Shown here: in pieces, positions 24,452-64,000 of the stretch
How positions within the stretch are numbered: the stretch's first letter is position 1
Layout: the number at the start of each line of letters is the position of its first letter
NCBI GenBank assembly: GCA_044892525.1
Contig: CM097888.1
Span: 12,896,001 to 12,960,000 of the forward strand
Length of the DNA stretch: 64,000 nucleotides
Direction: 5' to 3'
From: Schmidtea polychroa
Lineage: Eukaryota
Program-made: the position numbers and the translations under genes
The notes under the pieces: generated by a model
The model's input: the letters and a program-made list of their open reading frames with translations, nothing else
The model's database searches: none
What the model was told of the DNA's origin: nothing

Positions 24452-24940
24452 CAGAGCTCCGCAACTGGTGTACCGCGAGGTGATGCCTACCCGAGAAAAA
24501 ATATAGGGTTTATGACGGACACGTGCGTTATGCTTATATCTATCTTGTTTACAAATAATTGCGTCGAATTTCCGAAAAGGCTATTAAAGTTCTGCTCCCA
24601 TTTTCAATAAATATGTGAAGAATGTTTTTCAACTCTAGTTTTAATAAAAAAATGATAAGCGGTCGTGCTTGAAGGGCCTTGACCAAGAACTTCGAGTTGC
24701 TCTTTCAAATATTGAGCCCAATATACAACTATTATGTTCCTTAAAACAAGCACAGGTATCTCATTAGTTATAGTTATAAATAAAAAATAGTTGTTAACGG
24801 CGATAATAAATTTATCAAATAAAAAAAAATACATTTTCTGTTTGTGCATTTCTTATCAAGTAAATTTTTAAAAATTTTTGTTTGTGGTGTGCCGCGAAAT
24901 TTTTTTAAGTCTTTAGGTGAGAAAAGGTTGCGGAGCTCTG
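24452..24940. mobile_element. Non-autonomous hAT (Buster-type) MITE, 489 bp
   Basis: Perfect 14-bp TIR CAGAGCTCCGCAAC/GTTGCGGAGCTCTG; 8-bp TSD ATATAAAT (nnnTAnnn) on both sides. Confidence 0.9.
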
Positions 24941-25625
24941 ATATAAATGATACTAAATAGCTGTAATTGTATATACTTATGGGTGTAGTGTAACGTTAAT
25001 TTTTTGAATACAATTACGAATGATAATCATTATTTTCCTTCGAGACATATTTATTAAAGGAACACTCATATATTACTAAAGAGAAAGAAAAATTAATTCA
25101 ACACTAGAAAGTGTTTGTAAAGCCAAATCTCTCACTTCAATTAACATCGTGGTAAATCGCGATCGATCTGTTCTCTTCATACAGTTGTCTTTCCAAATAA
25201 TAACATAACAATGATCGTAAATAGTGTACCGAATCACTAAATCCTGTCAATATTAAAAGTTGTATTTTTTGATTAACTGATATTGTCCCGATACTCTTTA
25301 ATTGTGACTCTACCGGGTTCTCCCAAATTTCTTTTAACACACAAATATACAAGTATATAAACATAATATACATAGTTATACAAGCATAACACTAAACTTC
25401 ATAATAAGGGATATTATTATTGTTGACACTTTCCCTTCCTTGGATATATAAACAAGCTAAAAATGTCAAAAATGAAATAAATCAGACAGTGACACAGACT
25501 TGTACCAAATACCCAACACCCACCAAGTTGACGAATTATGAGGTACATGATCGACTTTCCGACTTGATGATGATTGAATATAAATTAGTTAGACCGAAAA
25601 CAATTTTTGTAACAAACGTTCCTAT

Positions 25626-26140
25626 CAACGTTCCTTTATCATATTTCATAAATAAAATCTTTAATAAAAAAAGAATATAATTTTATTTATGATTGATCAT
25701 CGGCCACGGATTTCATGAATTTATTTTGCTTTTCAACAGTGCCTGGTTTCGAATTGGCCAGAGTATTTAGTTCTTTTCGGTTTCGTTTCTGTTGCATTAT
25801 TCTACTCTCGTTATTCAAAGTTTTGATCTTGTGTGGAATGATTCTCCTGTTCTGAATTTTGCGCACATTTGGATTCAAAGCATATTTCTCTCTCAATTTA
25901 TCTGCCTCCATCAAGCTCATTCTTTCTCTCGGTGTTTTCTATTGGAAATAGATTATCACGTGACAATATACAAATATATACAATACCGGTCCTAATTTCT
26001 CAGCAGCATTTGACTTCCATAGTCGGACATTGTGACCTTTTGACAGTGTATATTTCCCTCGAAATTGAATCATCCTTATCGAAAATTCGAATCTAAGATA
26101 AATTAAGATAAGAAAAGCATTTTAAAGTAATTTAATTTAC
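25626..26140 (-). pseudogene. Partial duplicate of the DCAF13 3' end (last two exons, penultimate exon with internal deletion)
   Basis: Near-identical to 26676-27255 but missing about 65 bp; no upstream exons. Confidence 0.85.
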
Positions 26141-26736
26141 TGATCAAACTAGATGAACAACAAAGAAATGTCTTTGTTCGAGCATATTTAGACGAGGAAA
26201 GCAGAAATATGATAAGACTCCATTTTATTCGATTTATGGAAAAATCAAAAATTGTTAAAAATTTTTATTCTTCCAATTAGAAGCAACAGTCTCACATAGT
26301 AAGGCCTCTAAGTAATGTTTATTAAATTCCTTTAGGTTACTTTTTATGTAATTATTTGAAATCAGTGGTTTATTCAAACAAACCATAAACACTAATTTAT
26401 TTGAAAAAGTCATCGAAAATTATTTTCTTCGAATTCATTCCTGAAATTTGCAGTTTTTTTTATTTAGAACATATAATTGTTTTTCATTTAATCTTGTGGT
26501 TTTCTTTTTTTGCTTTATTTTATTTTAAAATCATATCGTCCCTTTTGTATATATATTTCAAATCAACTCCTTATTAAAAGCTCGATCAACATTTTATTGC
26601 TATTTTCGTACGATGTGTTATGAAAAGCCCTGTCCATAATGTCCTATAAAAAACATTCACTTATGTAAAGATAAACAACGTTCCTATATCATATTTCATA
26701 AATAAAAACTTTAATAAAAAAAGAATATAATTTTAT

Positions 26737-28376
26737 TTATGATTGATCATCGGCCACGGATTTCATGAATTTATTTTGCTTTTCAACAGTGCCTGGTTTC
26801 GAATTGGCCAGAGTATTTCGTTCTTTTCGGTTTCGTTTCTGTTGCATTATTCTACTCTCGTTATTCAAAGTTTTGATCTTGTGTGGAATGATTCTCCTGT
26901 TCTGAATTTTGCGCACATTTGGATTCAAAGCATATTTCTCTCTCAATTTATCTGCCTCCATCAAGCTCATTCTTTCTCTCGGTGTTTTCTATTGGAAATA
27001 GATTATCACGTGACAATATACAAATATATACAATACCGGTCCTAATTTCTCGGCAGCATTTGACTTCCACAGTCGGACATTGTGATCCGATGATGACGAC
27101 AGGATATACGCGTCATCATATGTATATCTCACGGTAATTCCCCTCATCATCCGTTTGACAGTGTATATTTCCCTCGAAATTGAATCATCCTTATTGAAAA
27201 TTCGAATCTAAGATAAATTAAGATAAGAAAAGCAATTTAAAGTAATTTAATTTACCGTTTTGTCAACACTACAAGAAACAAATTCATGGCCACGATTCGA
27301 ATAGCAAACATCACTAACTGATTGCCCATGGCCAGTGTGAATTTTAACGGGATTTTTAAAGAAACGACTATCAAAAGTATATAAATTATAATCAGCGGAA
27401 CATGTAGTTAAATAAACTGGAAACTGAGGATTGAAAGACATACTGTTACTTTTGTGTGTCATTTTAAGCTAGATAAAAATAAAAATAGAACTCGTAAAGT
27501 TTTATAAATATCTACTTGCGCTGACATTTGTGTTTGCCTAATATCGAATAAATTAATTTTATTATTATTTGTCAACCCACAGAGAATGTTAGTTTCAGTG
27601 GGATGAAATTTAACATAATGTACGCTCTCCCGATCATTTTGACCGAAAGTAGTGTAAACCTCACTATTCGAATAACCCAACTTATAAATTAAAACACATT
27701 CACTAGTCCCTATTGCAAAATGCTGATCAAAAAGCTGAGTACTTAAACTTTGTGGAACATTTTCAATGTGAAAAGTATTCATTGGGGGAACATTCTTGTT
27801 ACACCCTTCATTGTCAGATATATTTGAAAAATCCCACTGATTTATTACTTTATCATAACCACACTAGGAAAATAACAGGAAATTAAAATTATTAATTATA
27901 TAATTGTATTTACTGTTAAAAAATTGCCTTCATCAAAATGTGAAACACCAGATATAATACCATCGTGTGCTTTAAAATCAAAGAGTTTTAAACATGAAGA
28001 AACATTCCAATATTGAACCTAAGAAGTAATAGATAGTGATACATTTTTTTAATTAATTACTCGTCCATCTGAAGTACCAAATGCAGCTAGAGAAGCTTTT
28101 TTAGGATCAGTGCTAATAACTTGAACATCATCTAGGGTACCATTAAGTGACCTAATAAACGGTTTGCTAAGCATTCTCTGTATTTTAGACGCATTCATTG
28201 CTCTAATGTATTCTCGTTCCTGTGCAAAGGGATGAAGTGATTCTTGGTGGTTTCTAGGAACTAGTGAAATTTAATATTAAATTAAAATAAATATTTAAAC
28301 CTTTATGAATTTCATTCTTTGTTTCCCGCATGTATTCATAGGGATTTCTTACTAAGACTTTAACTTTATCAGACAT
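26737..28376 (-). CDS. DCAF13: DCAF13/SOF1 WD40 U3 snoRNP (SSU processome) protein, 454 aa, 7 exons
   Basis: Exons 28376-28301, 28260-28061, 28018-27914, 27863-27516, 27468-27256, 27207-27037, 26988-26737 join in frame via GT-AG introns of 40, 42, 50, 47, 48, 48 bp. Motifs: KVKVLVRNP, VPRN..LHPF..REYIRA.NA.K, DYNLYTFD, SREIY..KRM, NVRLWKSNAAEKLG, Sof1 tail SKPG. Confidence 0.95.
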
Positions 28377-30681
28377 AAGGTTGTAATAAAAAATATATAA
28401 TATTAAAACAATTTAAATTGTTTTAAAATGAGATACTTTATTTAACTTAAATAAATAATATTTTTTATAGATTTTTAAAATGGAAAAAGATTCAAAAATT
28501 TGTCATAATAATATAATTTAAAATTAAATTTAACAAGTATGAAATTGTAAAATTTTCTTGTACATAACACAATTATCTTAAAAGTTATATTAGTTTCTAA
28601 ATAGTTTGAACAACATATATATTTTTTCAATCATAAATATAAATGCCTATCACAAATACTTAAAATCCAATATTTTGAAATTCAATATTATATGACGGTA
28701 TTTATATAATTTGAAAATATCTAACTGAATTGTAACACAAATCTAATTTTTTATTAAATTATTAATTTTAATTAAAGCTTTTCTATGAGGAAAATATTAA
28801 TTTTAAAAATTATTTTAAATAAGCTTATGCAAATAAGTATTTTGTTCTCAATGTTAGATTTGTGGCGGTCTGAATTGGCTCAGGATTTCAAGTGGTATTG
28901 CTGGATATATCGTCTTAATTGAAACTTACCAATTTATAAAACAATAATTCTCAACCGTTTTTTGATAACGATACCTTTTTAATAATTTAGAAATATTAAA
29001 TAATTTTAAATTAAAATATTTTAAAATCTCCTTTTAACACATAGATTTGCAACAAATTAAAAATAATTTATTATTTAAATTTTAATTTTCAAAAAATATT
29101 TTTTAGTATAAAAAATTTATATTTTATAAATTTGCTTAAAAATCTGTATTTTCTATAATTATTCTATCCTACTTGACAATGACGGGAAAATTGCAAAAAT
29201 ATTTGAGTGGCGCTTTCTTATAATTAAACTATTGCCACGTATATTTAATTCTTGATTTATTGTTTAGTTAATTATTAGTATTTTATCATATTACCTAAAC
29301 TATTATAACTATTAATCATTTTAGTTTGATAATATATATTTTTTGATTTGTTTTATATTTATCATTTTTTTGAAATAATTGATGACACCATTTATTAATT
29401 TTTCTTAATGTTGGTGCTTAGGGGGTGTGTCATATAAATATTCAAGGGTTGTTTATGGATTTGGAATCGACTCTTTCCTAAACTCTTTCATTATTATTTT
29501 ACTTTATACCATCTGCGTATCCATGGCAACAACCATGTTGGTAATGTACACAGTGGCTGAAAATCAATGAGCAGATGAACTCTAATACTAGAACTACTCC
29601 TCATTGTATTTTCATTTTCGAGTTCTGGACTGCCTATAGAAGGTCTTACGTCACTGTTCATTATCTCTCTTTTCTTAGATGTGGCAAATATGTGCAGAGA
29701 GTACGGTGTCTGGTGCGAGTTGAACAAGGTTCGTTACGGAAAACCCGTTGTGTAATAGAAATAACTGCTCTGTCTGGAGGTTGAGTAAGAGTGATCAGAG
29801 TCATAGTGTGAGAACAGTGTTTAAAAAACGTGTACGTTAGAAGGAGGTGTATGAAGATAATTGTCGACTTTACGGTGAAAAAAACTGTTTTTGATATTGT
29901 TGGGTACGTTTGCAGAGGAAATGTTACGGAAAGAGTCGTTATCCCTTTTATGACTTTCGTAATATTTGAAAATTAATATTTGATAATAATACTTGATAAT
30001 ATTTAATATAATATGAAACTTGATAAAAATATTATTACAAAACTCTTTTTATAATATTTGTTAATGTTTAATATAATATTCGATACAATATTTAACTAAA
30101 ACTTTAAATTGTATATATTTGATAGAGTGCAATTAGATGAAATAAGGAATGCAAACAATTTAATAAAACTTACTTCAGCCAGGAACACTTCTGATACCAT
30201 TGTCGTGGTGGAGCTACCCGCACAGCAAGCTAATAATCGGACAAATAGATTAATTGAAAGTTCCACATAGTATAATCCAATTAAAAATTTCGAAAAATAA
30301 ATTTTCATATTTATTTGCGATTGTATTGTTGGGCTGAGTCGAAGGGTAGTTGGGAAATTAGGGCAAACTTAACTAAAATAAAATAAAAAATAAAAACAAA
30401 TAAATTGACAAATAAAATAGAATAAAACATAAGAAAAACAATAATTAGAAAATAGGAATTAAAACAAAAAATATAAAGATGAGAAAAAATTAAAATAGGA
30501 CAATAGAATGGCGGAAAACAACGTAAAATATAGTAAATAATAAGAAAATTAAGGAAAATAAATAAAAACATAATTTTAATAAAGAAAGTAAGAAGAAATA
30601 ACTAAAAACAAGGAAAATAAATTAAATTAATAAAATTAAGCGGTACTCAATTCTAATTGGTCCGCGCAAACAAAAAATTAA

Positions 30682-30791
30682 TATATAAGCAGGCATTAAA
30701 AACATAACAATTACTGTTAATCAAACCACCTCAATAGGTAAGTGAAATTTAAACAAGACTACTGTTAATCAAACAACCTCAATAGGTAAAT
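30682..30791 (+). promoter_or_regulatory. Candidate LTR core promoter and 5' splice donors
   Basis: TATATAAG at 30682; a 30-bp direct repeat (48-bp period, 30712 and 30760) whose copies end in AG|GTAAGT (30738) and AG|GTAAAT (30786); a further G|GTAAGG at 30953. Confidence 0.5.
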
Positions 30792-33191
30792 CTATTCTAC
30801 GACAGAACAGAACTCCAGCAACTAACGCACGATAACTCACGAGGACAATTCCAAGATTCAAGAGATTTTTACAGAACCAGACGATATTCGAGCATTAACT
30901 GATTCGACATAGTACCCTTTTCGACTCAGCCCATACTTGTAGCAATCCTTCGGTAAGGATTTTTGATTGCTTATTTTGAATTTTTAAGTAATGCGTATAG
31001 TTTAATAATATTTTTAATTTAAAAACTGGTTTTTCTTTTCGTTTGATTTTCGAATGCTTTACTTAAATTAATAATTTGCTTAATAATAAATGAATTAAGA
31101 ATTATTGATCTTTTATGAATTAATTTTTATGAATTATTATTGGAGACTATTCAATTTTGCGAGAAACGTGGCGTTGAGATACTCTATGTCATGGTGTGAG
31201 GTGCCTTCGGGAGCTCCACCGGTGGACATAGGGTATTTCAATCACGCAGCTAGATTGGGCCGAAATGTGAGGGCTTCTTCACGGGTCCAATTGCTGAAGG
31301 TGCGACTAAAATCTATAGGTAAATGGTGGCAGAAAATTGATAGTCATGTAGTGATTGAAAACAAAGATATGTAAGAAAGGAATCGGAGAATTTCGATGTA
31401 TTCGCGCAGTGATTGAGGGTGTCACACTATCGTTTTCGACTGCCGTTTTTGCTAAGCTTAAATTTTTCTCCATCATCAATGTAAGTTGTGCGTCAAAAAG
31501 TGTTCAAACCTTAGTGAGGCTATCTGTGACCTATCTTCGATGTTCATACTTTTCACTTAAGATCTGTTTCGACCAATTGTTAGTCTAAGACCTTTTGAAC
31601 TGGTATTCCGTTCATCTAAAAGTTCTCTTAAAGACATAGTTGCAAGGGAGTTCAAAGTAGATTGCTTCAGACAAGTATTAGGATTACTCGAAATGACTGT
31701 TTGTAAATAAATGGTAGAACCATGTAAAATGATTTAATCCAAAAAGTTATTCAGAATTGCATAAAACGAGTTTGTTCCAAATAAAAGCTTAAATTACATA
31801 AAATGATTCGCTATCATAAATTTTTAGAATTCTATATAAAAGGATTTACATACAATTAATTATCATGATTACATAAACTATTGGCATCAAATAATTTAAA
31901 AATGAAAAATGCAACCAATTCGAGCCAAGAAAAATATATTTCTTCAAGTTAGCCGATGATCTTGTTAATTAAATAAAAAATTCCAGTATTTCATGGGGTT
32001 GGCAATCCAGCAGGGATAGGTAGAAATCCTCCAGCACTTAGAGAGTAGATCGATAAACTAGGTTTGAGGAATTAAAGACGAAAAATCCACCCTTGGAGCA
32101 AGCTATATCCAACGTTTGCAATACAGATAATTATAATTTTTCCAATAATCCGGTGAGAATTAGTAAACCATCATCATATGCAGTAGAATTGTGAGCGATT
32201 ACGCGGTAGATAAAATTCTGAGAGAATGCCATCATGCAAACATTTAACACCTACATTTGTAGTGACGAGTATAAATAAGCGTGTGACAGCGCAACTTGCA
32301 TGCGTCACCAGTTGCAGACATACCTAGTAGCCAAGTACAGTGGGCAAAGTCACACACGCATCTACTCCTGAAAAACCAGACCGAACACACCAGATGGAGT
32401 TTCTATTAACTAATTAAACTACCGACAGGTATCGGATTTCACCGCTCCGGATTAAATGTCAACCACCGGGCTGACATTTCCTTATCCACCTAGCAGGAAT
32501 GGTCGGCTACTAGCTCACATTGATACCGTGCTCAGTTATCATAAAGGCAAAGTCTTTTAACGCTAAACCCGATCATAATCATGATTATTCTCTCTTTATT
32601 ATCTTAGCATGAATGGCATAGAAATTATTTCATTTTTTGACATAATTGTCATTAACATTAATATCGAATATTATTAAACAAATATTATTTAAACCGGGTA
32701 AAACACATATGCGAGTAATTTGAGAGAACGAATAAATAATTAAAAATTTAAATAACCTTCCGTTTATCCTGTAGGAACTAATCAACAGACATTATGGACC
32801 CCCTTTTCCATAGATAGTCACTCGACCCCAGTATATGATACACTCATCAAAATCACTCGTTCGGGGGGGGGAAGTCAACAATTCAACTCGATTCTCAATA
32901 AACGTGAAATAATGACTTCAAGCGGATTATATAAATAATCATTTTCATCGACCTAGAATTTCTCTCACTAATGGTAATATCTTCCTTTCCTTGTGCGAAA
33001 TGTGGTTTGAGCGATTTATCCTCTTACAGTTAAAGATCCAAAAGGTATGAGGATCCATCGTGCAGTAGAACTTGTCTTGACTAGTAAACCCATATTTTTG
33101 TCTATGATCAGTAAAGTCGGAATGTGGTCAGATGATGACACTCCCGTCGATTTAATTATTCTCATTTTCATTTTTTCCACAGTCACTCAAA

Positions 33192-33941
33192 ATGTTGCCA
33201 AATTCCAAGACCGTTCTTCGACCTTGTTTTTCTTGCTCCGACAAGAATTCAATTATCAAGGAGCTCCAGGCCCAGATCGGAAAGCACAAAAGAAAGATAG
33301 ATGAGTTAGAGGGGACATGGTTTAGTCCCACCCAGATGAAGGAGGTTCAGAAGAAGCTGCACCGAAGCGAGTACTGTAGAGACGCGTTGATTTCCGAGAG
33401 TCGGGCGCAGAGGAGCCTGATAAAAGAGCAATCGGAGGCGCTGCACAAATTATACGTCCAGGCAGCAACTACAAGGAAGATCGCGAAGATCCCAATTAAT
33501 GAAGCCAGTAATCTTTTCCCAGCGCATCATGATATCTCTGGCGGATCTTCTTCTCCAGTCGGAAAGTCCTGCCATGGGTGCGTAGAGACCGAGCTCTCAC
33601 CTAAAGAACCAGAAATTATCTGTACCGGAACCAGTAAAGTGCTACCTGCGATAGCATCCACCTCCGCAGCACCCCCGACCAATCCAACGGCATCGAAGCC
33701 AAAACGTCGGCAATTATCGAGAGCCGAACGCAAAAAGAAACAGCGGGAACGCGTAACCGCCAAACAGAACCAGCAATCGTCGGATCATCCAATCAAAGTC
33801 ATCAACCCTCCTGCAGCAATTGATTTAGCATCAGTGATCTCAGGGCGAATCATCTCCGCCGCTGGTGTTACCTGGGAGGAAAACGCCTCTGAGTTTTTCG
33901 ATTTGGAAGATCTATTGGCAGACTCGGAGTGGGAGAAATGA
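33192..33941 (+). CDS. LTR-encoded 249-aa protein (CxxC, coiled coil, Arg/Lys-rich motif, acidic tail), function unknown
   Basis: Intact in both LTRs; GC-richer than its flanks; strong acceptor TTTTCATTTTTTCCACAG ends 9 nt before the ATG. Confidence 0.7.
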   Translation: MLPNSKTVLRPCFSCSDKNSIIKELQAQIGKHKRKIDELEGTWFSPTQMKEVQKKLHRSEYCRDALISESRAQRSLIKEQSEALHKLYVQAATTRKIAKIPINEASNLFPAHHDISGGSSSPVGKSCHGCVETELSPKEPEIICTGTSKVLPAIASTSAAPPTNPTASKPKRRQLSRAERKKKQRERVTAKQNQQSSDHPIKVINPPAAIDLASVISGRIISAAGVTWEENASEFFDLEDLLADSEWEK

Positions 33942-34075
33942 GAACTTCCCCGTAAAAAGTCTTCGTTCTCTGAATTGACCTGAACATTGTCTGATAACAT
34001 TTTACCTTGTCTCTTTTCCCGTTGTCGTGAACTTTATTGTATAGGTGTTAGATATATTTGTGTGATAATCTTAAT

Positions 34076-34115
34076 AATAAACCATTTTTGTCTGCATACG
34101 TTTTTTTTGTGTTCA
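34076..34115 (+). terminator. Candidate LTR polyadenylation signal
   Basis: AATAAA at 34076-34081 followed by a T/GT-rich tract, 135 nt after the LTR ORF stop. Confidence 0.5.
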
Positions 34116-34512
34116 TCTTAAGACAGTTGAGTTGAAATTGGTAAATGGTATTGAGAGTCATAAAATTATGAGGAGCATTAGTCAGTTGGTAAACTCAGCT
34201 AGAAATATTGCGATGGGGCGACGGAATGAGTAGACGTAAGTCCTTCTATCGGCAGTCAGGGTTGGGAAGTCGAGGCCTCAGTAAGGAGTAGTCCGAAGGA
34301 GCTGGCTCACCTGCTTACTGGCGTCTCGCCGGCATAGCACAGTTCCAACGTGAAGCAATTCACGGGTGCTATGTTGGAGTGTAAGTTATGTACGGGTCCC
34401 GCTCGGCGATGACCAAATAAATGACGGGCGAAATCGAGGTGGGCATTCATCCTCTAGACTAAAGCTGCACTAGAAAGGGGTCATCCGAGTAGTGTACCCG
34501 CAACATAATTTT

Positions 34513-34532
34513 TGGGGGCTCAGCCGGGATTT
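34513..34532 (+). promoter_or_regulatory. Primer binding site, tRNA-Pro type
   Basis: TGGGGGCTCAGCCGGGATTT, 7 nt after the LTR end; 18/20 identical to the complement of the common animal tRNA-Pro 3' end (TGGGGGCTCGTCCGGGATTT). Confidence 0.85.
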
Positions 34533-34832
34533 AGATTGAAATTTCCATTGACTAGTGTAAACTGGATAAGGATGTTATTGAGTGAATTTCTGTCGAATAG
34601 AGTGAACTCACCGGGGATCAGTGATTTCAATGGGTTAGCGAGTGCAAATTGACTAATGCTTATCGAATCTTATTATAAATCACGAATAGAAAATAATAAA
34701 ATTAAAAATATAAATAAAGCAAATTTAATGATGGAGAAATAAGATAAAAGTAAAATAATGATAACGAGTTAGAAAAGAGAATGTTTGACGAAACGAAGTC
34801 ATATATTACTGAAACATTTTTTTTTAATAGAC

Positions 34833-35318
34833 ATGACGGAATTCGTGGACCCGATACAACAACTAATCAACTTCATAAACATCGAGAATGACTCCCTTAA
34901 AACGCTGACACAAAAAAGAGAAAGAATTAACATCATACTACTTCAAGCAATCGGGCAAACACCAGCCGTCCCCAACCACATGTTATTAGCCACAGGACTA
35001 AGTCACCCAGAGGGGAAGGTAAACCCGGAAACCGTGTATCAATGGTATCAAGAGAGATTGAACCACCCAGCATTAAATCTTGATTATCAACGTATAAAAG
35101 ATCCACTAAATACCATATCAGATACAATCGAGCGGAAAATACAAGAAAAACTGACTCTACTACGAACTTGTCGTGCTTGTAAACTTCGTCCTATTCGCGT
35201 ACTGTTTTTGCCGTGTGGACACCTCAGTCACTGCGAAGAATGTGTGAACGATTTAAAACGATGTACGATATGTAGGCATGAAATAAAAGAAACTCATATG
35301 GTTTATTATGGTGAATAA
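34833..35318 (+). CDS. 161-aa protein with C-terminal IAP/MDM2-type RING finger (putative E3 ligase)
   Basis: CRAC..RPIRVLFLPCGHLSHCEEC...LKRCTICR.EI at the extreme C-terminus; first ATG at 34833 follows a T-tract TAG acceptor. Confidence 0.85.
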   Translation: MTEFVDPIQQLINFINIENDSLKTLTQKRERINIILLQAIGQTPAVPNHMLLATGLSHPEGKVNPETVYQWYQERLNHPALNLDYQRIKDPLNTISDTIERKIQEKLTLLRTCRACKLRPIRVLFLPCGHLSHCEECVNDLKRCTICRHEIKETHMVYYGE

Positions 35319-35881
35319 AACTGTTACAGCTACAATGACATCTATGAACATCAAATTGATACTGACAATTGAATGAGAATGAATGTAATTGTTGTGTGAA
35401 ATTTTATTAAAGTTTTAAATTTTATTTCTATGACGAATAAATTTTTGTTGTGAACTGAGTAATTTATGGCTTTTAATTTTATTTTATAACTTTGTTTTGG
35501 AATCAAACGAAAAGAAAACCGAAATAACGTGGAATTAGTCCCAATATAGGCTGTAAGGGTACAAACCGAGCCACCTTAGGGCGGTACGTTCTATCATACG
35601 ATAAAACCAATTGGGAGGGGATAACCGATCAACCTAAGTGAGGAGCGTAGGGCGGGGTACCATCGCAAATGATGAGAAGTTTCTGCGGCATGACTGATCA
35701 CCATGCCAATGTAGAAATGGATCATCGCGATCGTCGTGCGTTTTGAGCAAGGGGGGAAAGGGGACACACTCCCGAGCGGTAAAGATTAAGTCAACAAATT
35801 AAAAATAGACAGAGAAAATGGTAATCTTGAGTAAAAGAAGAAAAGAGAGGTAGAAGCATGCAGAGTAAAGAATGTTAAAGC

Positions 35882-36207
35882 TGAGCTGTTGAATAGTGCC
35901 AGCCAGTCGTAAGATCGAGTTGTTGAATAGTCCAACCGATCAGAAGGAGGAAGATTGAGCTGTTGAATAGTGCCAGCCAGTCGTAAGATCGAGTTGTTGA
36001 ATAGTCCAACCGATCAGAAGGAGGAAGATTGAGCTGTTGAATAGTGCCAGCCAGTCGTAAGATCGAGTTGTCGAATAGTCCAACCGATCAGAAGGAGGAA
36101 GATTGAGCTGTTGAATAGTGCCAGCCAGTCGTAAGATCGAGTTGTCGAATAGTCCAACCGATCAGAAGGAGGAAGATTGAGCTGTTGAATAGTGCCAGCC
36201 AGTCGTA
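35882..36207 (+). repeat. 74-bp tandem repeat, about 4.4 copies, dimeric (34+40 bp)
   Basis: Units start at 35882, 35956, 36030, 36104, 36178; both subunits share YGAGYTGTYGAATAGT. Confidence 0.95.
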
Positions 36208-37573
36208 AAGGCCTAGAAAAGCGAGAGATAGCAGTTAAGCTACAATGAGCTAATATCTGAATTAATAGAGAAAGGGAATATTAAAGCTAGCTAGAAACAA
36301 ATTGAATGTAATTACGGAAATTTGAGTTTAGAGAGGAAATAAACGAGCTCGTGGAAAAGATAATAAGATTATAATGAAAAAGGAAAGGGAAGAAGGAAAC
36401 GAATTAAAGAGATAATGGAAAATAAAGAATAGGCGAAACGATGATAATGAGTAAAGAGGAAAGTAACCAACTAATTAAAGGGATCCCAGTGAGGTAGAGA
36501 AACTCTGCGGAATATTTTTTTTTGGTTAAACCGGGAAAATGCATTTTATTGGTTCCAGAGTAGAACCGAGCGTAATAATAGTAAATATGAAAAGTAAAAT
36601 AGCGACAACAGCGCAAAAGGAATAGGAAAACGAAGGGGGGTAATAAGCAGAGACCGACAACGACCTATTTTTACTATAATTGATAACGAATAGATAATTA
36701 TTACGACTTGATAGATAATTGTTACTACCCCATATAGATAATTTAAAATCGACGAAAAATTCGGGCTGATGGGAGATTATAACCCGCGGAAGTAATTGCA
36801 TAAAAAATAGGGGAAGCATAAACAGAACCTAAAAGGTGTCTGTGTTCGAACGTTGTTGAAAGAATGATGAAGTCGTGTAAGCAAATGCAACACGAGATCA
36901 TTTTTTCATTTTAGATATCAAACCAATCCAGTCAACCAAGACAATCCAGAACCTGCACAAAAGGAATTCGAAGAAATCGACAATCGACCAAGAATAAATT
37001 CATTCAGAACCCGCACCGAGAGACACAGCAACCGGAAGACTCCAGAACGGAAGAAGATACAGATAGCGATATCTCCAACTTCGAACGAATCATCGATATA
37101 TTCAACCTCATAATATTAGCAGCCATCTGTCAAGGACTAGTGAATCTCCTCAGAATCACAGTAGCAGATCCATACAGAATATTTATCGAAGGAAACACAA
37201 TCAGAACCGAACTCGTCCAATTCAATAGCCGCTAATTACCAAGAAGCGTAAGAAAGGAATCACGGATAAACCCAATCTTAGATCTTCAAGTAAGCCAGGA
37301 GACGTATTATTTTCAGGAGACGAATTACAACAACTCAAAAGAGGACGATCTATTAAACAGCAAAGAGGAATATCGCAAGGATCAAGAAGAACCAATCAAG
37401 TACCTATATTTGACCAAGAAAATCTCGGATACACCCCTAGTCGATCTCGAAGCAGAGAAAGTCTGTCCGACATCACTAATAGTTTAGCAACGTCAACCGA
37501 GGAATTATCAGCCCAAAGTTTAGTCACATCGTTAGACAATTTAAAAGAAACAGACGAATCTAGAACACCAATC

Positions 37574-51427: not shown

Positions 51428-51587
51428 AAAGGAATATGACTGTATATAATTGTAAAAAGTAAGTATATCTTATGTATATAACAGTACTATATCTTTATAT
51501 AAGCGCGGTATCAATATTATACAATAACGGGAATCATAAAATAAAATTAAAGTTAAATAAGAGTTGAAAAGTGTATATAAATTAAGA

Positions 51588-55545: not shown

Positions 55546-55586
55546 ATTAAGGGTCACTAAAACCAATTGTAAATAAACCATAATGA

Positions 55587-56156: not shown

Positions 56157-59100
56157 CCAATCCAGCCGAATTCTAACAATCAGACCTATCTCAACATCAA
56201 TACCCGAACCAACCAACAACCGCCAGCAGAAGCATCAAATGGTTAGCAGTTCATAAACTCTAACTCAAACATTGGTGTTATCATATGCAGAAACTTTTAT
56301 TGTATATACAAACTATCACCTTAAGTGATACTTGCTTGGTCTTGATTTGACCTATATCTTAGAATAAAATTGTTTTTGTTATTGTAGTATAATTGTTTCG
56401 ATATATCCTTTTTATGAATGCATGAAGTAAGATAACTATGCAATTGCGGGACGCAATTTTGATGGGTCCCCGAGTGATTTGTTGGGCTGAGTCGAAGGGT
56501 AGTTGGGAAATTAGGGCAAACTTAACTAAAATAAAATAAAAAATAAAAACAAATAAATTGACAAATAAAATAGAATAAAACATAAGAAAAACAATAATTA
56601 GAAAATAGGAATTAAAACAAAAAATATAAAGATGAGAAAAAATTAAAATAGGACAATAGAATGGCGGAAAACAACGTAAAATATAGTAAATAATAAGAAA
56701 ATTAAGGAAAATAAATAAAAACATAATTTTAATAAAGAAAGTAAGAAGAAATAACTAAAAACAAGGAAAATAAATTAAATTAATAAAATTAAGCGGTACT
56801 CAATTCTAATTGGTCCGCGCAAACAAAAAATTAATATATAAGCAGGCATTAAAAACATAACAATTACTGTTAATCAAACCACCTCAATAGGTAAGTGAAA
56901 TTTAAACAAGACTACTGTTAATCAAACCACCTCAATAGGTAAATCTATTCTACGACAGAACAGAACTCCAGCAACTAACGCACGATAACTCACGAGGACA
57001 ATTCCAAGATTCAAGAGATTTTTACAGAACCAGACGATATTCGAGCATTAACTGATTCGACATAGTACCCTTTTCGACTCAGCCCATACTTGTAGCAATC
57101 CTTCGGTAAGGATTTTTGATTGCTTATTTTGAATTTTTAAGTAATGCGTATAGTTTAATAATATTTTTAATTTAAAAACTGGTTTTTCTTTTCGTTTGAT
57201 TTTCGAATGCTTTACTTAAATTAATAATTTGCTTAATAATAAATGATTTGCTCGTTAAGAATTATTGATCTTTTATGAATTAATTTTTATGAATTATTAT
57301 TGGAGACTATTCAATTTTGCGAGAAACGTGGCGTTGAGATACTCTATGTCATGGTGTGAGGTGCCTTCGGGAGCTCCACCGGTGGACATAGGGTATTTCA
57401 ATCACGCAGCTAGATTGGGCCGAAATGTGAGGGCTTCTTCACGGGTCCAATTGCTGAAGGTGCGACTAAAATCTATAGGTAAATGGTGGCAGAAAATTGA
57501 TAGTCATGTAGTGATTGAAAACAAAGATATGTAAGAAAGGAATCGGAGAATTTCGATGTATTCGCGCAGTGATTGAGGGTGTCACACTATCGTTTTCGAC
57601 TGCCGTTTTTGCTAAGCTTAAATTTTTCTCCATCATCAATGTAAGTTGTGCGTCAAAAAGTGTTCAAACCTTAGTGAGGCTATCTGTGACCTATCTTCGA
57701 TGTTCATACTTTTCACTTAAGATCTGTTTCGACCAATTGTTAGTCTAAGACCTTTTGAACTGGTATTCCGTTCATCTAAAAGTTCTCTTAAAGACATAGT
57801 TGCAAGGGAGTTCAAAGTAGATTGCTTCAGACAAGTATTAGGATTACTCGAAATGACTGTTTGTAAATAAATGGTAGAACCATGTAAAATGATTTAATCC
57901 AAAAAGTTATTCAGAATTGCATAAAACGAGTTTGTTCCAAATAAAAGCTTAAATTACATAAAATGATTCGCTATCATAAATTTTTAGAATTCTATATAAA
58001 AGGATTTACATACAATTAATTATCATGATTACATAAACTATTGGCATCAAATAATTTAAAAATGAAAAATGCAACCAATTCGAGCCAAGAAAAATATATT
58101 TCTTCAAGTTAGCCGATGATCTTGTTAATTAAATAAAAAATTCCAGTATTTCATGGGGTTGGCAATCCAGCAGGGATAGGTAGAAATCCTCCAGCACTTA
58201 GAGAGTAGATCGATAAACTAGGTTTGAGGAATTAAAGACGAAAAATCCACCCTTGGAGCAAGCTATATCCAACGTTTGCAATACAGATAATTATAATTTT
58301 TCCAATAATCCGGTGAGAATTAGTAAACCATCATCATATGCAGTAGAATTGTGAGCGATTACGCGGTAGATAAAATTCTGAGAGAATGCCATCATGCAAA
58401 CATTTAACACCTACATTTGTAGTGACGAGTATAAATAAGCGTGTGACAGCGCAACTTGCATGCGTCACCAGTTGCAGACATACCTAGTAGCCAAGTACAG
58501 TGGGCAAAGTCACACACGCATCTACTCCTGAAAAACCAGACCGAACACACCAGATGGAGTTTCTATTAACTAATTAAACTACCGACAGGTATCGGATTTC
58601 ACCGCTCCGGATTAAATGTCAACCACCGGGCTGACATTTCCTTATCCACCTAGCAGGAATGGTCGGCTACTAGCTCACATTGATACCGTGCTCAGTTATC
58701 ATAAAGGCAAAGTCTTTTAACGCTAAACCCGATCATAATCATGATTATTCTCTCTTTATTATCTTAGCATGAATGGCATAGAAATTATTTCATTTTTTGA
58801 CATAATTGTCATTAACATTAATATCGAATATTATTAAACAAATATTATTTAAACCGGGTAAAACACATATGCGAGTAATTTGAGAGAACGAATAAATAAT
58901 TAAAAATTTAAATAACCTTCCGTTTATCCTGTAGGAACTAATCAACAGACATTATGGACCCCCTTTTCCATAGATAGTCACTCGACCCCAGTATATGATA
59001 CACTCATCAAAATCACTCGTTCGGGGGGGGGGAAGTCAACAATTCAACTCGATTCTCAATAAACGTGAAATAATGACTTCAAGCGGATTATATAAATAAT

Positions 59101-59352
59101 CATTTTCATCGACCTAGAATTTCTCTCACTAATGGTAATATCTTCCTTTCCTTGTGCGAAATGTGGTTTGAGCGATTTATCCTCTTACAGTTAAAGATCC
59201 AAAAGGTATGAGGATCCATCGTGCAGTAGAACTTGTCTTGACTAGTAAACCCATATTTTTGTCTATGATCAGTAAAGTCGGAATGTGGTCAGATGATGAC
59301 ACTCCCGTCGATTTAATTATTCTCATTTTCATTTTTTCCACAGTCACTCAAA

Positions 59353-60102
59353 ATGTTGCCAAATTCCAAGACCGTTCTTCGACCTTGTTTTTCTTGCTCC
59401 GACAAGAATTCAATTATCAAGGAGCTCCAGGCCCAGATCGGAAAGCACAAAAGAAAGATAGATGAGTTAGAGGGGACATGGTTTAGTCCCACCCAGATGA
59501 AGGAGGTTCAGAAGAAGCTGCACCGAAGCGAGTACTGTAGAGACGCGTTGATTTCCGAGAGTCGGGCGCAGAGGAGCCTGATAAAAGAGCAGTCGGAGGC
59601 GCTGCACAAATTATACGTCCAGGCAGCAACTACAAGGAAGATCGCGAAGATCCCAATTAATGAAGCCAGTAATCTTTTCCCAGCGCATCATGATATCTCT
59701 GGCGGATCTTCTTCTCAAGTCGGAAAGTCCTGCCATGGGTGCGTAGAGACCGAGCTCTCACCTAAAGAACCAGAAATTATCTGTACCGGAACCAGTAAAG
59801 TGCTACCTGCGATAGCATCCACCTCCGCAGCACCCCCGACCAATCCAACGGCATCGAAGCCAAAACGTCGGCAATTATCGAGAGCCGAACGCAAAAAGAA
59901 ACAGCGGGAACGCGTAACCGCCAAACAGAACCAGCAATCGTCGGATCATCCAATCAAAGTCATCAACCCTCCTGCAGCAATTGATTTAGCATCAGTGATC
60001 TCAGGGCGAATCATCTCCGCCGCTGGTGTTACCTGGGAGGAAAACGCCTCTGAGTTTTTCGATTTGGAAGATCTATTGGCAGACTCGGAGTGGGAGAAAT
60101 GA
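59353..60102 (+). CDS. Second copy of the LTR-encoded 249-aa protein
   Basis: Identical except P>Q and one synonymous change. Confidence 0.7.
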   Translation: MLPNSKTVLRPCFSCSDKNSIIKELQAQIGKHKRKIDELEGTWFSPTQMKEVQKKLHRSEYCRDALISESRAQRSLIKEQSEALHKLYVQAATTRKIAKIPINEASNLFPAHHDISGGSSSQVGKSCHGCVETELSPKEPEIICTGTSKVLPAIASTSAAPPTNPTASKPKRRQLSRAERKKKQRERVTAKQNQQSSDHPIKVINPPAAIDLASVISGRIISAAGVTWEENASEFFDLEDLLADSEWEK

Positions 60103-60620
60103 GAACTTCCCCGTAAAAAGTCTTCGTTCTCTGAATTGACCTGAACATTGTCTGATAACATTTTACCTTGTCTCTTTTCCCGTTGTCGTGAACTTTATTG
60201 TATAGGTGTTAGATATATTTGTGTGATAATCTTAATAATAAACCATTTTTGTCTGCATACGTTTTTTTTGTGTTCATCTTAAGACAGTTGAGTTGAAATT
60301 GGTAAATGGTATTGAGAGTCATAAAATTATGAGGAGCATTAGTCAGTTGGTAAACTCAGCTAGAAATATTGCGATGGGGCGACGGAATGAGTAGACGTAA
60401 GTCCTTCTATCGGCAGTCAGGGTTGGGAAGTCGAGGCCTCAGTAAGGAGTAGTCCGAAGGAGCTGGCTCACCTGCTTACTGGCGTCTCGCCGGCATAGCA
60501 CAGTTCCAACGTGAAGCAATTCACGGGTGCTATGTTGGAGTGTAAGTTATGTACGGGTCCCGCTCGGCGATGACCAAATAAATGACGGGCGAAATTGAGG
60601 TGGGCATTCATCCTCTAGAC

Positions 60621-63212
60621 CAGGGGTTCCCAAACTTTTACCAGTCGAGACCCACTATTTAGACCGCAAAGTTTTCACGACCCACCTGTAAATAAAACAA
60701 GAAAAAAGCTAAAAATGTTGATTTACATATTTATTTAACACGCATATTTAAGAATAATTAATAGGATGAATGAGATGAATGAGCCTGCTTTCTATTTTTT
60801 GCAATAACATCTTCGACATCTACTTTTATATTTGTTGTTATTAAGCGAAGTGAGTTTGATAGCTGTAATTTGTTGCGATATTTATTTTTTATTGCAATCA
60901 TTGACGAAAATGCAACCTCGCATAGATAAGAAGTTGTGAAAGGAAGCAATACTTAACGCTGCGGTGTGTAAAGTTGGATATGTGTTTTGCACCGATAACC
61001 AAAACTGTAACAATTTCGTACCGTCAAAATGTAATTTAACAACACTATCTTCGAATAGCTCAATTAATTCCTCATCCACTATCGTCGATATACCGGTAAC
61101 TAAACCACTTTGAAATGGATTTTGAACCCATGTATATTATTCTAGATTTTTCATTTCTCCATAGAAATAAAAATCAAAATTTTCTTTAAGTCTGTCCAAA
61201 TGCTCAATTATTAAAGAAATTAAATCGTTATTGGGCGTTACTTCATTTTCAATGATAAAAGTTTGGAATGTATCAAAGCAGTCATATTTATTTTCTTGAA
61301 CATTATTTTTCCACAACATAAGTTTTTTTGTAAAACCTTTTATTTTACCATGAACCGAAAATATATCAATTCCATTTGTTCCTTGTAATTGTAAATTTAA
61401 ATCGTTCAATTTCGAAAATATATCTGCTAAATAAGTCAGCAAAACTACATATTTCACATCGCGCAAATTTGATGTGTACTCATCTTGTTTATGTTCATGT
61501 AAATATATTGCTACTTCTTCGCGAAGTTCAACAAGTCTTGTCAGGACTTTGCCTTTCGATAGCCAGCGGACTTCTGTATGCAGCAGAAGAGATTTATGTA
61601 AACTTCCCATCTCTTCGCAGAGTTTTTGAAATAATCGTGATTGTAATGGTTTGCTCTTAATAAAATTTACAATTTTTATAGCAGTGGTCAAAACAGTATT
61701 TAGACTTTTTGGTATATTTTTGGATACTAACGCTTCTCTATGAATAGTGCAGTGAGTCCACGTTGCATTTGGACATTTTTGAAGACAACGTGTCACAGCA
61801 CCACACATTGCTTTTGCACCGTCGCTACATATTCCGACGCAGTTTTTCCAATCCAGTTTTTTCAATGTTATATAAGTGTCGAGCGTATCAAAAATTATTT
61901 CACCAGTTCCTCGAATGATTGGTTCACAAAATAATATGTCTTCAAAGAACTCGTTGCACCATATAAAACGTATGAAAATAATTAGTTGGGACAAACCTTG
62001 TACATCGGTTGATTCATCCAGTTGCAACGCAAAAAGTCCACTAACTTGAATTCTATGGATAAGCTTATTTTCTACCCATTCGGACATTTCATCAATTCTA
62101 CGAGCAACTGTGTTATTAGAAAGTGGAATTGATTCAACTTCTTTTAAGCTCTGCTCTCCAAACATAATTCCAACAGCATCTTTTATAGCTGGAAGTACTA
62201 ATGACTCTCCAATAGTGTGCGGTTTACCGGATTGTGCAATTCGCAAACTAATGAGATACGAGGCGAACATAGCCTTTTCATTAATGCTGATGAAGCGAGA
62301 AAATAGATTTTTTGAATTATTTAATTCCTGTAATTTGGTTTTAAAATAATCAATAGGCTTATTTTTTAAATCGGAATGTTTCGTCTCAAAATGTCGTATT
62401 AATTTGTTAGGTCGCATACTTTCATTAGCCAGAATTTCTTGACAAATAACACACTGTGGGCGTGGATCATCTTCTTTTCTATTCCATGTAAATCCAAATT
62501 TTAGATATTCAGAATCATATTTTCTTTGGCCACGTTTTGATGATTGCGAACTTGTTGAAGGATTCTCACCAAATTTTCTCTTATTATCTGTTTTTGTTGC
62601 TACAGAACCTTCTTTTTCTTTTTCATTTTCAATTGTTTGATTTTGCCCAGGAGTCTTTTTCAACCACTTATCCATCGCAGCAATGGTTCTTTAAAAATAA
62701 GAATATTAAGAACTTTATTTATTACATGAAATACTATAGCACTAAATTTAAAAAATACTTACATTTGATTTTAAATTATGTTTTTTTATTAACGAAACAC
62801 TTTTATTAACAATATATATAAACTTTTTTATTAACAACACAACACCGTACTTAGTCCAAAACAAAATTTGCACTGGTTGTCTGAATATTTAAAGTTTGTA
62901 ATCCTAAATTTCTAATTAACCGTTATTTGTGTTTGGTTGCCTGGTTAAAATGTAGAAAAATGGTTGCTATGATGCGATTATTAGAAACAAGTTCTAAATA
63001 CAAAAATTTGCTAAAAAGAAGTTTAATTTTTAAACCACCTAAAAATATGCAATAATTTTTTGTCGCAAACCTACTTATATATAAATATTGTGACAAGTTA
63101 AGTAAAAGCAAATTAATATGCTCAGTAATACAAATATTAAATTTTTGGCGACACACCGAAAATAGCTTCGCGACCCACCAGTGGGTCGCGACCCACACTT
63201 TGGGAACCGCTG
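60621..63212 (-). mobile_element. Buster/ZBED5-type hAT transposon inserted in the 3' LTR
   Basis: TIR CAGGGGTTCCCAAA / CAGCGGTTCCCAAA; 8-bp TSD CTCTAGAC (60613-60620, 63213-63220); single empty site at 34452-34459 in the 5' LTR. Confidence 0.95.
60758..62675 (-). pseudogene. hAT Buster-type transposase with one premature stop (61137-61139) and one frameshift (about 60950)
   Basis: BED finger CVIC..RHFETKH, LDESTD, SDGA, HC..HREAL, RWLS; the dimerization domain LLPFTTSYLCEVAFS continues in a shifted frame. Confidence 0.92.
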
Positions 63213-64000
63213 CTCTAGACTAAAGCTGCACTAGAAAGGGGTCATCCGAGTAGTGTACCCGCAACAGTATCATTTGTTTGTACTCTGTTCCAAGTTATTC
63301 ATTGAATTGGCATTTTTGTTGTTGATGTTTAATTGGTTGTTTATTGTTAAATCTGAATATGGTGGAGTTTTGTCTGTTGCTGCTGGTAAGGTAGCCATGT
63401 TGTTTTGTTTTTGTTTGAAAAAGAGCCAGTTTTTTAATTAATGTTATTTAACTCTTTGACGACGAATTTTAAAAAATGAAATTTCTGTAACTTTAACGAT
63501 AGAAATCAGCTATATAGCTTGTTTAAAATGTGTAATGTTGATTTTGTTGGGTTATTGAGTTGGTGATAAAATTTATTGTTACTCTGACTCCAAGCGTGTC
63601 TTTATATAATTCACAAATAACACTTGACAACAGAAATCTTTATTGATAATCACAAATAAACTTTCACTTGACAATGACAATAAATTCAACACTCTGCTGG
63701 GTGACTATACAGTGCTTATTGCAACACTCGGTGAGGAATAGCACTTTCGTATAACACCGGATTAAAAGATCACAAATTACTGATTGGTTTCTAAACTGGG
63801 ATTTTGAGCTGGTTGTTTTCTTTGACTTTCTTTCAAACTTTATTCAAATAATCAATAACTTCTTTTCGTTTTATTATTCAACTAATTTTTCTCTTCAACT
63901 TTTCTCCAATAATTATTTTCCACAATTATTTCCATTACAATTATTTTGACAATCGTTTGTCCAACAACGTTTCGTCCAACGTCTAATTTTCTCCAATAAT

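Follow-up and report, generated by a model that had tools for sequence, protein, structure and literature searches.

The 64,000-nucleotide stretch of Schmidtea polychroa DNA analysed here (the window) holds a giant Gypsy element, each of whose long terminal repeats (LTRs) carries an intact ORF for a 249-residue protein. From its sequence, this ORF is a selected, conserved protein gene that was previously unnamed; it may already appear in the extended data of Grohme et al. 2018 or in Repbase entries. As the most likely function, still a tentative one that draws on sequence, structural models and analogy, we propose a dimeric RNA regulator resembling Rev and CERV, which would be made from a default short transcript and would shift the output of the element to long and unspliced RNA. 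What is seen are the sequence signals, an undamaged ORF in each LTR and conservation of the protein; helices and dimer are modelled, and we infer all RNA ends and junctions, the nuclear location, RNA binding and the switch. The wider proposal, that the LTR amounts to a full gene of two exons in an R region (or R plus U5) of more than 3 kb and founds a new family of Rev-like switches common to several giant Gypsy lineages, we consider somewhat unlikely.

The giant element and its LTRs

The element measures 30,340 bp (~30.3 kb) when the hAT insertion is subtracted, with an internal region of 21,974 bp (Table 1). The signals picked out by the first-pass annotation lie inside a true LTR, as positions 30327-34505 are repeated at the right end of the element with a 4-bp target duplication. 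Ty3/Gypsy features were found throughout: the order protease, reverse transcriptase (RT), RNase H, integrase; a Ty3-type RT, with Ty3 RT as the best PDB match (E 3e-90); TG...CA LTRs; and the target duplication. The fusion glycoprotein was recognized by Pfam as PF24664 at polyprotein residues 1868-2207 (E 1.4e-70), and the protease starts at residue 2397. The PBS-like 18-mer just past the 5' LTR may resemble tRNA-Pro; a search for tRNA genes within the 64-kb window found none. The flanks of the element are AT-rich, which is compatible with a planarian host and no more than that.

Table 1. Positions of the element, its LTR gene and associated signals in the window
Feature	Position	Strand	Remarks
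5' LTR	30327..34505	+	4,179 bp, TGTTG...CAACA; 4-bp target duplication matches right end of element
Putative U3/promoter	30327..30711	+	57% A; inverted CCAAT box 30656-30660, TATATAA 30682
Predicted ATG-free leader exon with three donors	30712..30952	+	predicted start ~30 nt past TATA
Predicted intron	30738..33182	+	2,445 nt from first donor; contains most of 45 upstream ATGs and alternative AATAAA 31085
14-nt arm	30920..30933	+	perfectly complementary to first bases of LTR, 30330-30343
18-nt arm	31031..31048	+	perfectly complementary to 35501-35518
LTR ORF, 249 aa	33192..33941	+	coiled coil 12-99 with GTWFSP kink, Arg/Lys-rich helix 171-196, acidic aromatic tail 226-249
AATAAA with T/GT-rich downstream tract	34076..34120	+	135 nt past LTR ORF stop; candidate R/U5 border
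PBS-like 18-mer, starts TGG	34513..34530	+	7 nt past 5' LTR
Second acceptor 34830 and RING-finger ORF 34833-35318	34818..35318	+	followed by AATAAA/ATTAAA with T-rich tracts at 35406, 35436
Partner arm, internal region	35501..35518	+	complement of 31031-31048
Third acceptor 36914 and 659-nt ATG-free leader up to gag ATG	36899..37573	+	longest ATG-free gap of element
Polyprotein, 4,617 aa	37574..51427	+	Gag, three CCHC knuckles, Monjiviricetes-type fusion glycoprotein, protease, RT, RNase H, integrase, ankyrin repeats
Five downstream ORFs: 119, 462 (TRAF-like RING-MATH), 351, 253, 189 aa	51588..56156	+	short AT-rich spacers, AATAAA after every stop
3' LTR	56480-60620 plus 63221-63266 (span 56480..63266)	+	split by hAT transposon
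3' LTR copy of LTR ORF, intact	59353-60102	+	acceptor 59343, AATAAA 60237
hAT transposon within 3' LTR	60621-63212		8-bp duplication

Giant Gypsy elements named Burro (GYPSM1) are described from Dugesiidae planarians, with a total length above 30 kb and an internal region of up to 25 kb (PMC6431247). The window element resembles them in exceeding 30 kb, in having a single polyprotein (4.6-5.1 thousand residues in Burro) with Gag, three CCHC motifs and ankyrin repeats, in a mononegavirus-type env that lies between gag and protease and shares their frame, and in MATH/TRAF and RING genes and tandem repeats, as far as the Burro passage of PMC6431247 describes them. It differs in that TRAF is a separate downstream ORF, and no ORF or intron in the LTR is mentioned in that passage. 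The BIR, BCL2-like and dUTPase-like domains of Burro, found there by HHpred, were not detected in the window element by Pfam or PDB phmmer searches, and a ubiquitin-like domain reached only E 0.011, below the cut-off. The host of the LTR gene is a young, virus-like, Burro-like Gypsy element.

Predicted promoter, splice sites and poly(A) signals

The LTR had been annotated as a self-contained spliced gene, and the signals named are all present: TATATAA at 30682, AG/GTAAGT at 30738 with no ATG between, an acceptor at 33182, the 249-aa ORF, and AATAAA at 34076 with its T/GT-rich tract. The first donor (30737/30738) matches the U1 consensus at 8 of 9 positions, ranks first among 1,019 GT sites and sits 56 nt 3' of the TATA. 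A 30-nt unit around it is duplicated at 48-nt spacing, which creates a second donor at 30785/30786; a third is found at 30952/30953. A TATA followed within 30-300 nt by AG/GTRAG, without ATG, occurred in 26/2000 and 32/2000 shuffles. The ATG of the LTR ORF lies 9 nt past the acceptor, and an acceptor as good as this at most 15 nt from the ATG was seen in 21-52 of 5000 shuffles. The acceptor had been called textbook; it is among the best but not unique, as 32607, 32813 and 33029 equal it by pyrimidine count.

When the three donors were joined to the three acceptors, all nine joins made the downstream ORF's own ATG the first. In unspliced RNA, 45, 68 and 106 ATGs precede the LTR ORF, the RING ORF and the polyprotein, respectively, and starts at three other TATA-like sites leave 26, 18 and 7 upstream ATGs; splicing from a promoter at the 5' end of the LTR is the sole arrangement among those tested that is free of them. 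The gag leader and the LTR first exon (483 nt at the LTR start) are the longest two distinct stretches between ATGs in the element, which has 672 ATGs. The gag-leader gap was matched in 0/5000 mononucleotide shuffles, but in 192/5000 dinucleotide shuffles, a modest result. The LTR does contain every signal of the gene, but its first exon is probably not reserved for it: the LTR donor probably serves the whole element, leading the messages for the LTR ORF, the RING ORF and the 4,617-aa polyprotein.

The poly(A) signal at 34076 says little by itself, because AATAAA occurs 19 times in the LTR and would be expected by chance within 33942-34200 in 16% of shuffles; its T-rich tract ties for third to sixth place among 125 hexamers in the element. 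The R of about 3.4 kb proposed at first is plausible but not forced, as a second AATAAA within the intron, at 31085 (57238 in the 3' LTR), would permit an R of ~0.4 kb. Under either choice the predicted RNA ends would put the cap ~3.8 kb from the PBS.

Two stretches of complementarity may link distant parts of the RNA. One of 18 nt or longer appeared in 0/300 and 2/300 block shuffles, and pairing of 31031-31048 with 35501-35518, available in the 5' context only, would place the exons of both short ORFs, poly(A) signals included, in a loop. The 14-nt arm at 30920-30933 would make 5'-3' pairing of genomic RNA possible. Folding of the two leader regions showed neither unusual structure (z 0.27 and -1.60) nor a response element, and an Rfam search gave nothing at gathering level and two sub-threshold matches only. 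Occlusion of the donors by U3, as in foamy viruses, was considered and dropped, since it was not reproduced in folding.

Three other layouts bear on where the RNAs begin and end. Genomic RNA may end at the intronic AATAAA, leaving the coding exon in a 3.4-kb U5; this concerns the length of R only, with the same promoter and gene, and is compatible with either protein function. The tracts past 31085 and 34076 do not differ in T content (20 T in 40 nt), foamy viruses likewise have a donor 5' of a poly(A) signal within R (PMC3694450), and the U3-start arm pairs with exon 1 at a probability of ~0.8 when U3 is included. However, 280 nt of extra upstream sequence cut this pairing to ~0.3, inclusion of U3 left the donors more unpaired (the first from 0.14-0.41 to 0.45, the third from 0.16-0.34 to 0.53-0.56), opposite to the foamy switch, and donors 130-350 nt 5' should suppress site 31085 in both LTRs. 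We judge the short R improbable. A layout like that of MMTV, with a 3.75-kb U3 holding the ORF and AATAAA, a start near 34085 and the ORF made from the 3' LTR via a donor at 34235, would dispense with poly(A) suppression and keep R within the 15-250 nt given for retroviruses (PMC12789967), and a donor matching at 7/9 positions is present at 34236. Yet TATAWAW is absent 3' of 32930 in the LTR, four ATGs precede the donor, and the TATA, the best donor and the long ATG-free gap at the LTR start are all left unexplained, which makes this layout quite improbable. Finally, the acceptors may receive a trans-spliced leader instead of the LTR exon, the ORFs forming an operon-like array. Flatworm leaders end in AUG and use acceptors common to cis-splicing (PMC12582326), a leader AUG would share the frame of the LTR ORF (9 nt), and the downstream ORFs are set apart by spacers of 41-193 nt with AATAAA in each. 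Against this stand the strong cis donors upstream and the reading frame at the RING acceptor, with which a leader AUG would not agree; in spacers so rich in A, AATAAA is a common hexamer. We regard trans-splicing as very unlikely.

The LTR protein and its relatives

An ORF of at least 249 aa arose in 0/1000 shuffles in each of three LTR schemes and in 1/2000 local shuffles. Sixteen relatives of the protein were found, all among sequences labelled 'metaclust', with a common coiled-coil module and a core identity of 25-38%. A profile made without the window protein gave it 74.5 bits vs at most 11.0 for shuffles (1,952 reported of 2,000). Met lies 41-50 residues ahead of an invariant Trp in 11/16 relatives and 42 in the window protein; in three relatives the four residues ahead of this Met are identical after differing upstream sequences, as would be expected of an acceptor right before the ATG. 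The gene suspected in the LTR is thus real and conserved. That it is a chance open frame or the passenger of a nested element might be argued from the lack of Pfam, PDB and word-index matches, from the two coding differences between the LTR copies, one of which alters an amino acid, and from its GC content (50% vs 39% in the polyprotein), but this is largely refuted by the shuffle tests and the invariant residues of the relatives, and the sole flanking inverted repeat is without a target duplication.

Pfam assigned the LTR ORF to no family, a PDB profile search with the protein gave no match, a word-index search with the single protein retained 0/872 candidates, and exact look-up of 10 window proteins in the sequence collection found none present. 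Foldseek searches of the PDB and of viral libraries gave 0 matches at E 0.001. A fold assignment from VIA-align (best Z 8.1) was dropped because the matches were generic helical hairpins, and the best ESM Atlas scores, 0.85 for the whole protein and 0.91 for residues 10-118 (111/256 features in common), were to unnamed bacterial clusters and are regarded as chance.

Structure prediction, as suggested in the first-pass annotation, yielded no fold but did yield helices: the monomer model is all-helical, with no globular domain. The predicted homodimer scored 0.57 vs 0.00 for the best control, with at least 85% of contacts common to the runs and pLDDT of at least 78. This mark was reached by 21/30 known homodimers and 0/23 monomers, and among eukaryotes by 17/29 homodimers, but just 1/7 of the homodimers lacking an older solved relative, and by 0/30 monomers; any coiled coil may pass by likeness. 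The hairpin of the monomer model may be artificial, the result of modelling a single chain of a dimer.

Of the regulator-like features first noted, the coiled coil and the Arg-rich motif are kept in the family, whereas CxxC, which recurs in the window protein at residue 127, occurs in 0/16 relatives and was discarded as a family feature; HxxC is found ten residues nearer the Trp in 6/16. The motif has the form NxRRxERR in 9/16 relatives; that of the window protein is a Lys/Arg mix. Pfam REV was matched by one relative of 12 rows, sub-threshold at 19.1 bits (cut-off 22). A tree of the module splits the relatives into groups, with the window protein on a long branch of unsure place. Fourteen of the 16 occur as fusions with other proteins, which belong to 14 different, unrelated families.

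A proposed regulatory switch and its alternatives

In the Rev/CERV-like reading, transcription would start ~30 nt past the TATA, some 385 nt into the LTR, and the short ATG-free exon 1 would bear the major splice donor of the element. By default it would be spliced to 33182 and the RNA cut past 34076, giving a ~1-kb message for the 249-aa protein that any LTR copy (5', 3' or solo) may be able to make; joined to farther acceptors, it would give RING and gag-env-pol messages. Genomic RNA would have to retain the donors and read past the poly(A) sites of the short genes. The protein would form a parallel coiled-coil dimer displaying two Arg-rich helices. In the manner of Rev/Rex or the CERV of Cer1, it would act on RNA of the element itself within the nucleus, so that the short spliced message would give way to long and unspliced RNA. 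The 18-nt pairing, with its 5' context, may assist the switch.

Points for this reading are the top-ranked donor close to the TATA, the nine own-ATG-first joins and two longest ATG-free gaps, the relatives with their profile score, Arg-rich motif and REV match, the homodimer score, and a Gypsy precedent: CERV, made from spliced Cer1 mRNA, is needed for export of genomic RNA (PMC10309623). Against it count the 0 matches of the window protein to six consensus patterns of leucine-rich export signals, the ordinary folding of the two leader regions, the lack of NxRRxERR in the protein's own motif, the several pyrimidine-rich AGs 5' of 33182 and the modest dinucleotide result for the gag leader. According to PMC3694450, a protein that affects polyadenylation had not been demonstrated for any retrovirus, which also counts against it.

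Its main rival, which we consider unlikely, keeps the gene structure and makes the protein a transcriptional activator like Tas or Tat, a coiled-coil dimer with its basic helix on LTR DNA or nascent RNA and the acidic aromatic tail as activation domain. The last 24 residues (net charge -8, with W, F, F, L, L, W) are predicted disordered, no export-signal pattern is matched in the protein, foamy Tas is an early gene that switches on the LTR (PMC12789967), and three group-B relatives have a Trp-acidic stretch, a pattern picked after seeing the sequences, 184-186 residues past the conserved Trp (184 in the window protein). This equal offset may be coincidence: MAFFT aligns the tail with no Trp-acidic stretch, and the other two groups have none at that place. 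The basic helix also lies 70-80 residues from the coil, past a disordered linker, an arrangement unlike that of bZIP proteins. A role towards the host or in the cytoplasm, as an anti-silencing factor or an adaptor for RNA transport or packaging, and not in nuclear processing or transcription of the element's RNA, is likewise unlikely. The element has other host-directed genes (RING, TRAF-like, ankyrin), and planarian Burro elements are under piRNA control (PMC8532177, PMC10558129), but basic NLS-like stretches occur in all three groups of relatives, and the position as default promoter-proximal product suits a feedback regulator.

The LTR protein would resemble Rev/Rex/Rem and Tat/Tas of complex retroviruses as a small early product of fully processed RNA (PMC12789967). 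An Arg-rich motif and an oligomerisation surface, both present in those regulators, may be further points of likeness. It differs in having no significant sequence or fold match and more than twice the size of Rev, and in that both exons, promoter and poly(A) signal are predicted inside one LTR. It resembles CERV as a Gypsy accessory protein with a helical dimerisation region and a spliced mRNA, both predicted here (PMC10309623). CERV has 517 aa and M and G domains and is encoded in the gag region, outside the LTR; H, M and G domains and exons common with gag were not found for the LTR protein, whose 249-aa model is all-helical and which is encoded apart from gag. The sag gene of MMTV is located in U3. 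It is likewise a coding ORF duplicated in both LTRs with a spliced message, which here is predicted (PMC12789967), but Sag is a membrane protein encoded upstream of the start site, with an R of 15 nt, whereas the LTR ORF is predicted to lie downstream of the start and to encode a soluble protein. The R of foamy viruses, in either LTR, likewise has a poly(A) signal preceded by the major splice donor (PMC3694450); it is only ~200 nt long and without a coding exon, and its donor occlusion depends on U3.

For LTR retrotransposons, additional ORFs have been described from the internal region (PMC7264820). If the wider proposal of a two-exon LTR gene is true, an intron-bearing coding gene past the LTR promoter would stretch the tolerance of reverse transcription and poly(A) choice, with minus-strand strong-stop synthesis spanning up to 3.8 kb, and early/late control in the style of complex retroviruses would occur in an invertebrate Gypsy element beyond Cer1. 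Solo LTRs could be exon and poly(A) traps in host introns, a possible explanation for chimeric gene models such as the fusions among the relatives, and would be dispersed protein-coding regulator genes acting in trans on full-length elements.

The giant element and its LTRs

Comparison of the window with itself revealed a 4.15-kb direct repeat of 99.6% identity, the two copies of which are the LTRs of a giant Gypsy retrotransposon. A 4-bp target duplication lies on both sides of the whole element. Only four substitutions, all isolated, and two indels distinguish the LTR copies, and the insertion is therefore young. Not counting a hAT-type transposon within the 3' LTR, the element measures 30,340 bp. 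Its 4,617-aa ORF contains Gag, three zinc knuckles, a Monjiviricetes-type fusion protein, protease, Ty3-type reverse transcriptase, RNase H, integrase and ankyrin repeats. Upstream of this polyprotein ORF lies a RING ORF, and downstream are five ORFs, one of them TRAF-like. This architecture is that of the planarian Burro elements (PMC6431247); by architecture the element is Burro-like, and it is a further example of a known element type. The supplements of PMC13524379 list flatworm GAG-ENV-POL elements, and the family could be among these.

Between 56420 and 56479, ahead of the 3' LTR, no purine-rich polypurine tract was found (at most 13 purines per 20 nt); small hairpins occupy this segment. 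Several of the five downstream ORFs are closely preceded by TATA-like runs and have an AG 1-3 nt ahead of the ATG; no pyrimidine-rich acceptor was found for these ORFs.

Coordinates of the element's features and of neighboring repeats in the window
Feature	Position	Strand	Remarks
Reverse-transcriptase remnant	5528-6800	minus	no relation to the giant element by self-BLAST
Local duplications, left flank	20473-27255		410-510 bp, 95-99% identity
5' LTR	30327-34505		
LTR ORF	33192-33941		249 aa; second copy in 3' LTR
PPT-like run	35749		5' internal region of element
Tandem array	35882-36251		74-bp unit, copies 99% identical; between RING ORF and gag acceptor
Gag leader	36915-37573		covered by stop-free frames of 106 and 115 codons, which overlap; second runs into gag
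Five downstream ORFs	51428-56156		separated by short AT-rich spacers
3' LTR	56480-63266		interrupted by the hAT transposon 46 nt before LTR end
hAT-type transposon	60621-63212	minus	terminal inverted repeats, 8-bp duplication, 512-aa transposase-like ORF

The LTR gene and predicted splicing of the element

The first-pass annotation had read the LTR as a self-contained spliced gene for a possible trans-regulator, and all the signal positions that it claimed were borne out in the sequence. The LTR ORF is intact in both LTRs, the copies differing by one silent and one amino-acid change. ORFs of this length arose in 0/1000 shuffles on each of three occasions and in 1/2000 local shuffles; the TATA-donor pair was seen in 26/2000 and 32/2000, and an acceptor as good as this one close to the ATG in 21-52/5000. 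The poly(A) signal after the ORF is, taken alone, within chance (16% of shuffles), and its downstream tract tied for third to sixth among 125 hexamers. The LTR ORF is almost certainly a real gene.

The LTR donor at 30738 is the sole 8/9 match to the U1 consensus among 1,019 GT sites from 30327 to 56479. A duplicate follows it after 48 nt, with a third donor at 30953. Acceptors are found 9 nt ahead of the LTR ORF and 2 nt ahead of the RING ORF, while a third, at 36914, opens a 659-nt ATG-free stretch that closes at the gag ATG. Ranked by length, the distinct ATG-free gaps (672 ATGs) are headed by this gag leader and the stretch that carries the TATA and donors; the gag leader was ATG-free in 0/5000 mononucleotide and 192/5000 dinucleotide shuffles. 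The intended ATG comes first in all nine donor-acceptor joins; without splicing, 45, 68 and 106 ATGs would intervene for the three target ORFs. With other TATA-like sites as the start, 7-26 ATGs remain, and a start near 34085 leaves four before the next donor. Competing acceptors are present upstream of 33182, the LTR-ORF acceptor. From these sequence features we infer that a single promoter near the 5' end of the LTR would serve alternative terminal exons, and the LTR gene is probably spliced as predicted.

A pyrimidine-rich AG at 30929 (region 30908-30952) lies 23 nt ahead of the third donor; the interval could be a micro-exon, and it overlaps the arm complementary to U3. The stop-free frames of the gag leader make a non-AUG start or an N-terminal extension of gag possible.

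The LTR-encoded protein and its relatives

The 249-aa protein had no match by single-sequence word search, Pfam, PDB or Atlas. Exhaustive phmmer found 11 proteins (E 1.4e-7 to 1e-3), and profile searches, each scoring 8,000 candidates, added at least five further relatives; in the core, these proteins are 25-38% identical to the window protein. A profile built without the window protein scores it at 74.5 bits, against 0.8 for the reversed sequence, at most 11.0 for shuffles and at most 3.0 for the element's other seven ORFs. W43, P46, L66, E69, R71, Q73 and R74 are invariant in the 12-row alignment, and in 11 of the 16 relatives a Met lies 41-50 residues ahead of the Trp. From that Met, the relative P0014 runs 264 aa to an end that it has in common with another, P0015, close to the length of the window protein. 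NxRRxERR with at least 9 Lys/Arg per 18 residues occurs in 9/16; the remaining seven end, skip or weaken at this motif. Fusion to unrelated Pfam families (14/16, involving 14 different families) suggests a dispersed mobile exon absorbed by gene models, a pattern that does not itself establish an LTR location for those copies. A CxxC, noted earlier in the window protein, proved not to be a family feature (0/16), and HxxC occurs at another offset in six relatives. The acidic tail has a look-alike at the same offset in three relatives, but the alignment does not confirm it.

AlphaFold2 (12 rows) gave a mean pLDDT of 66.7, with confident helices at 15-39, 46-99 and 177-196 and the rest disordered; fold searches returned generic helical hairpins only. 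For residues 8-118 a homodimer is predicted, its chains parallel and in register over 12-91 (score 0.57, against 0.00 for the best of three controls). The homodimer mark was reached by 21/30 known homodimers and 0/23 monomers, and for eukaryotes by 17/29 (but 1/7 without an older solved relative) and 0/30 monomers; any coiled coil may pass by likeness. None of six leucine-rich export-signal patterns matched the protein.

Predicted RNA ends and possible function

A cap near 30712 places the PBS-like site at 34513 at a distance of 3.8 kb, whichever poly(A) site sets R. The chances are roughly even that AATAAA 34076 does so, giving an R of about 3.4 kb. An R of about 0.4 kb set by AATAAA 31085, the downstream tract of which is as T-rich, is unlikely, and an MMTV-like layout is more doubtful still. 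A 7-nt indel between the LTR copies (31094 / 57247-57254) sits 4 nt past the intronic AATAAA. The T-richest downstream tract in the element follows AATAAA 56363, 117 nt ahead of the 3' LTR; at this position, the site may let protein-coding messages stop short of the 3' LTR, and it has to be read through in genomic RNA.

Two perfect complements were detected. One, of 18 nt (31031-31048 with 35501-35518), exists in the 5' context only, and its pairing would place the exons of both short ORFs in a loop; it was equaled in 0 and 2 per 300 block shuffles of 30327-37573 and, for a larger region, in 0/60 twice. The other, of 14 nt, joins the first bases of the LTR to 30920-30933 (0/500, in a test whose position was picked post hoc); its core is -26 kcal/mol, and -24 or better was reached in 8-9/300 shuffles. 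Donor occlusion of the foamy-virus type (PMC3694450) was considered for this pairing, and folding did not reproduce it.

The default promoter-proximal spliced product would be a dimerizing protein with an Arg-rich helix, and the element's genome would have to get past several poly(A) sites as well as the best of its own donors. For these reasons an early RNA-level regulator is the best, though tentative, reading of the window protein; CERV offers a Gypsy precedent (PMC10309623). A Tas-like activator is a less probable reading, and a host-directed or cytoplasmic role is similarly improbable. At the level of listings and abstract openings, literature searches on ORFs or introns inside retrotransposon LTRs and on Rev-like Gypsy proteins turned up no such gene. 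Within the literature covered, the predicted complete spliced gene inside this LTR, and its protein family, appear to be undescribed, and we think it rather likely that the protein regulates the element itself.
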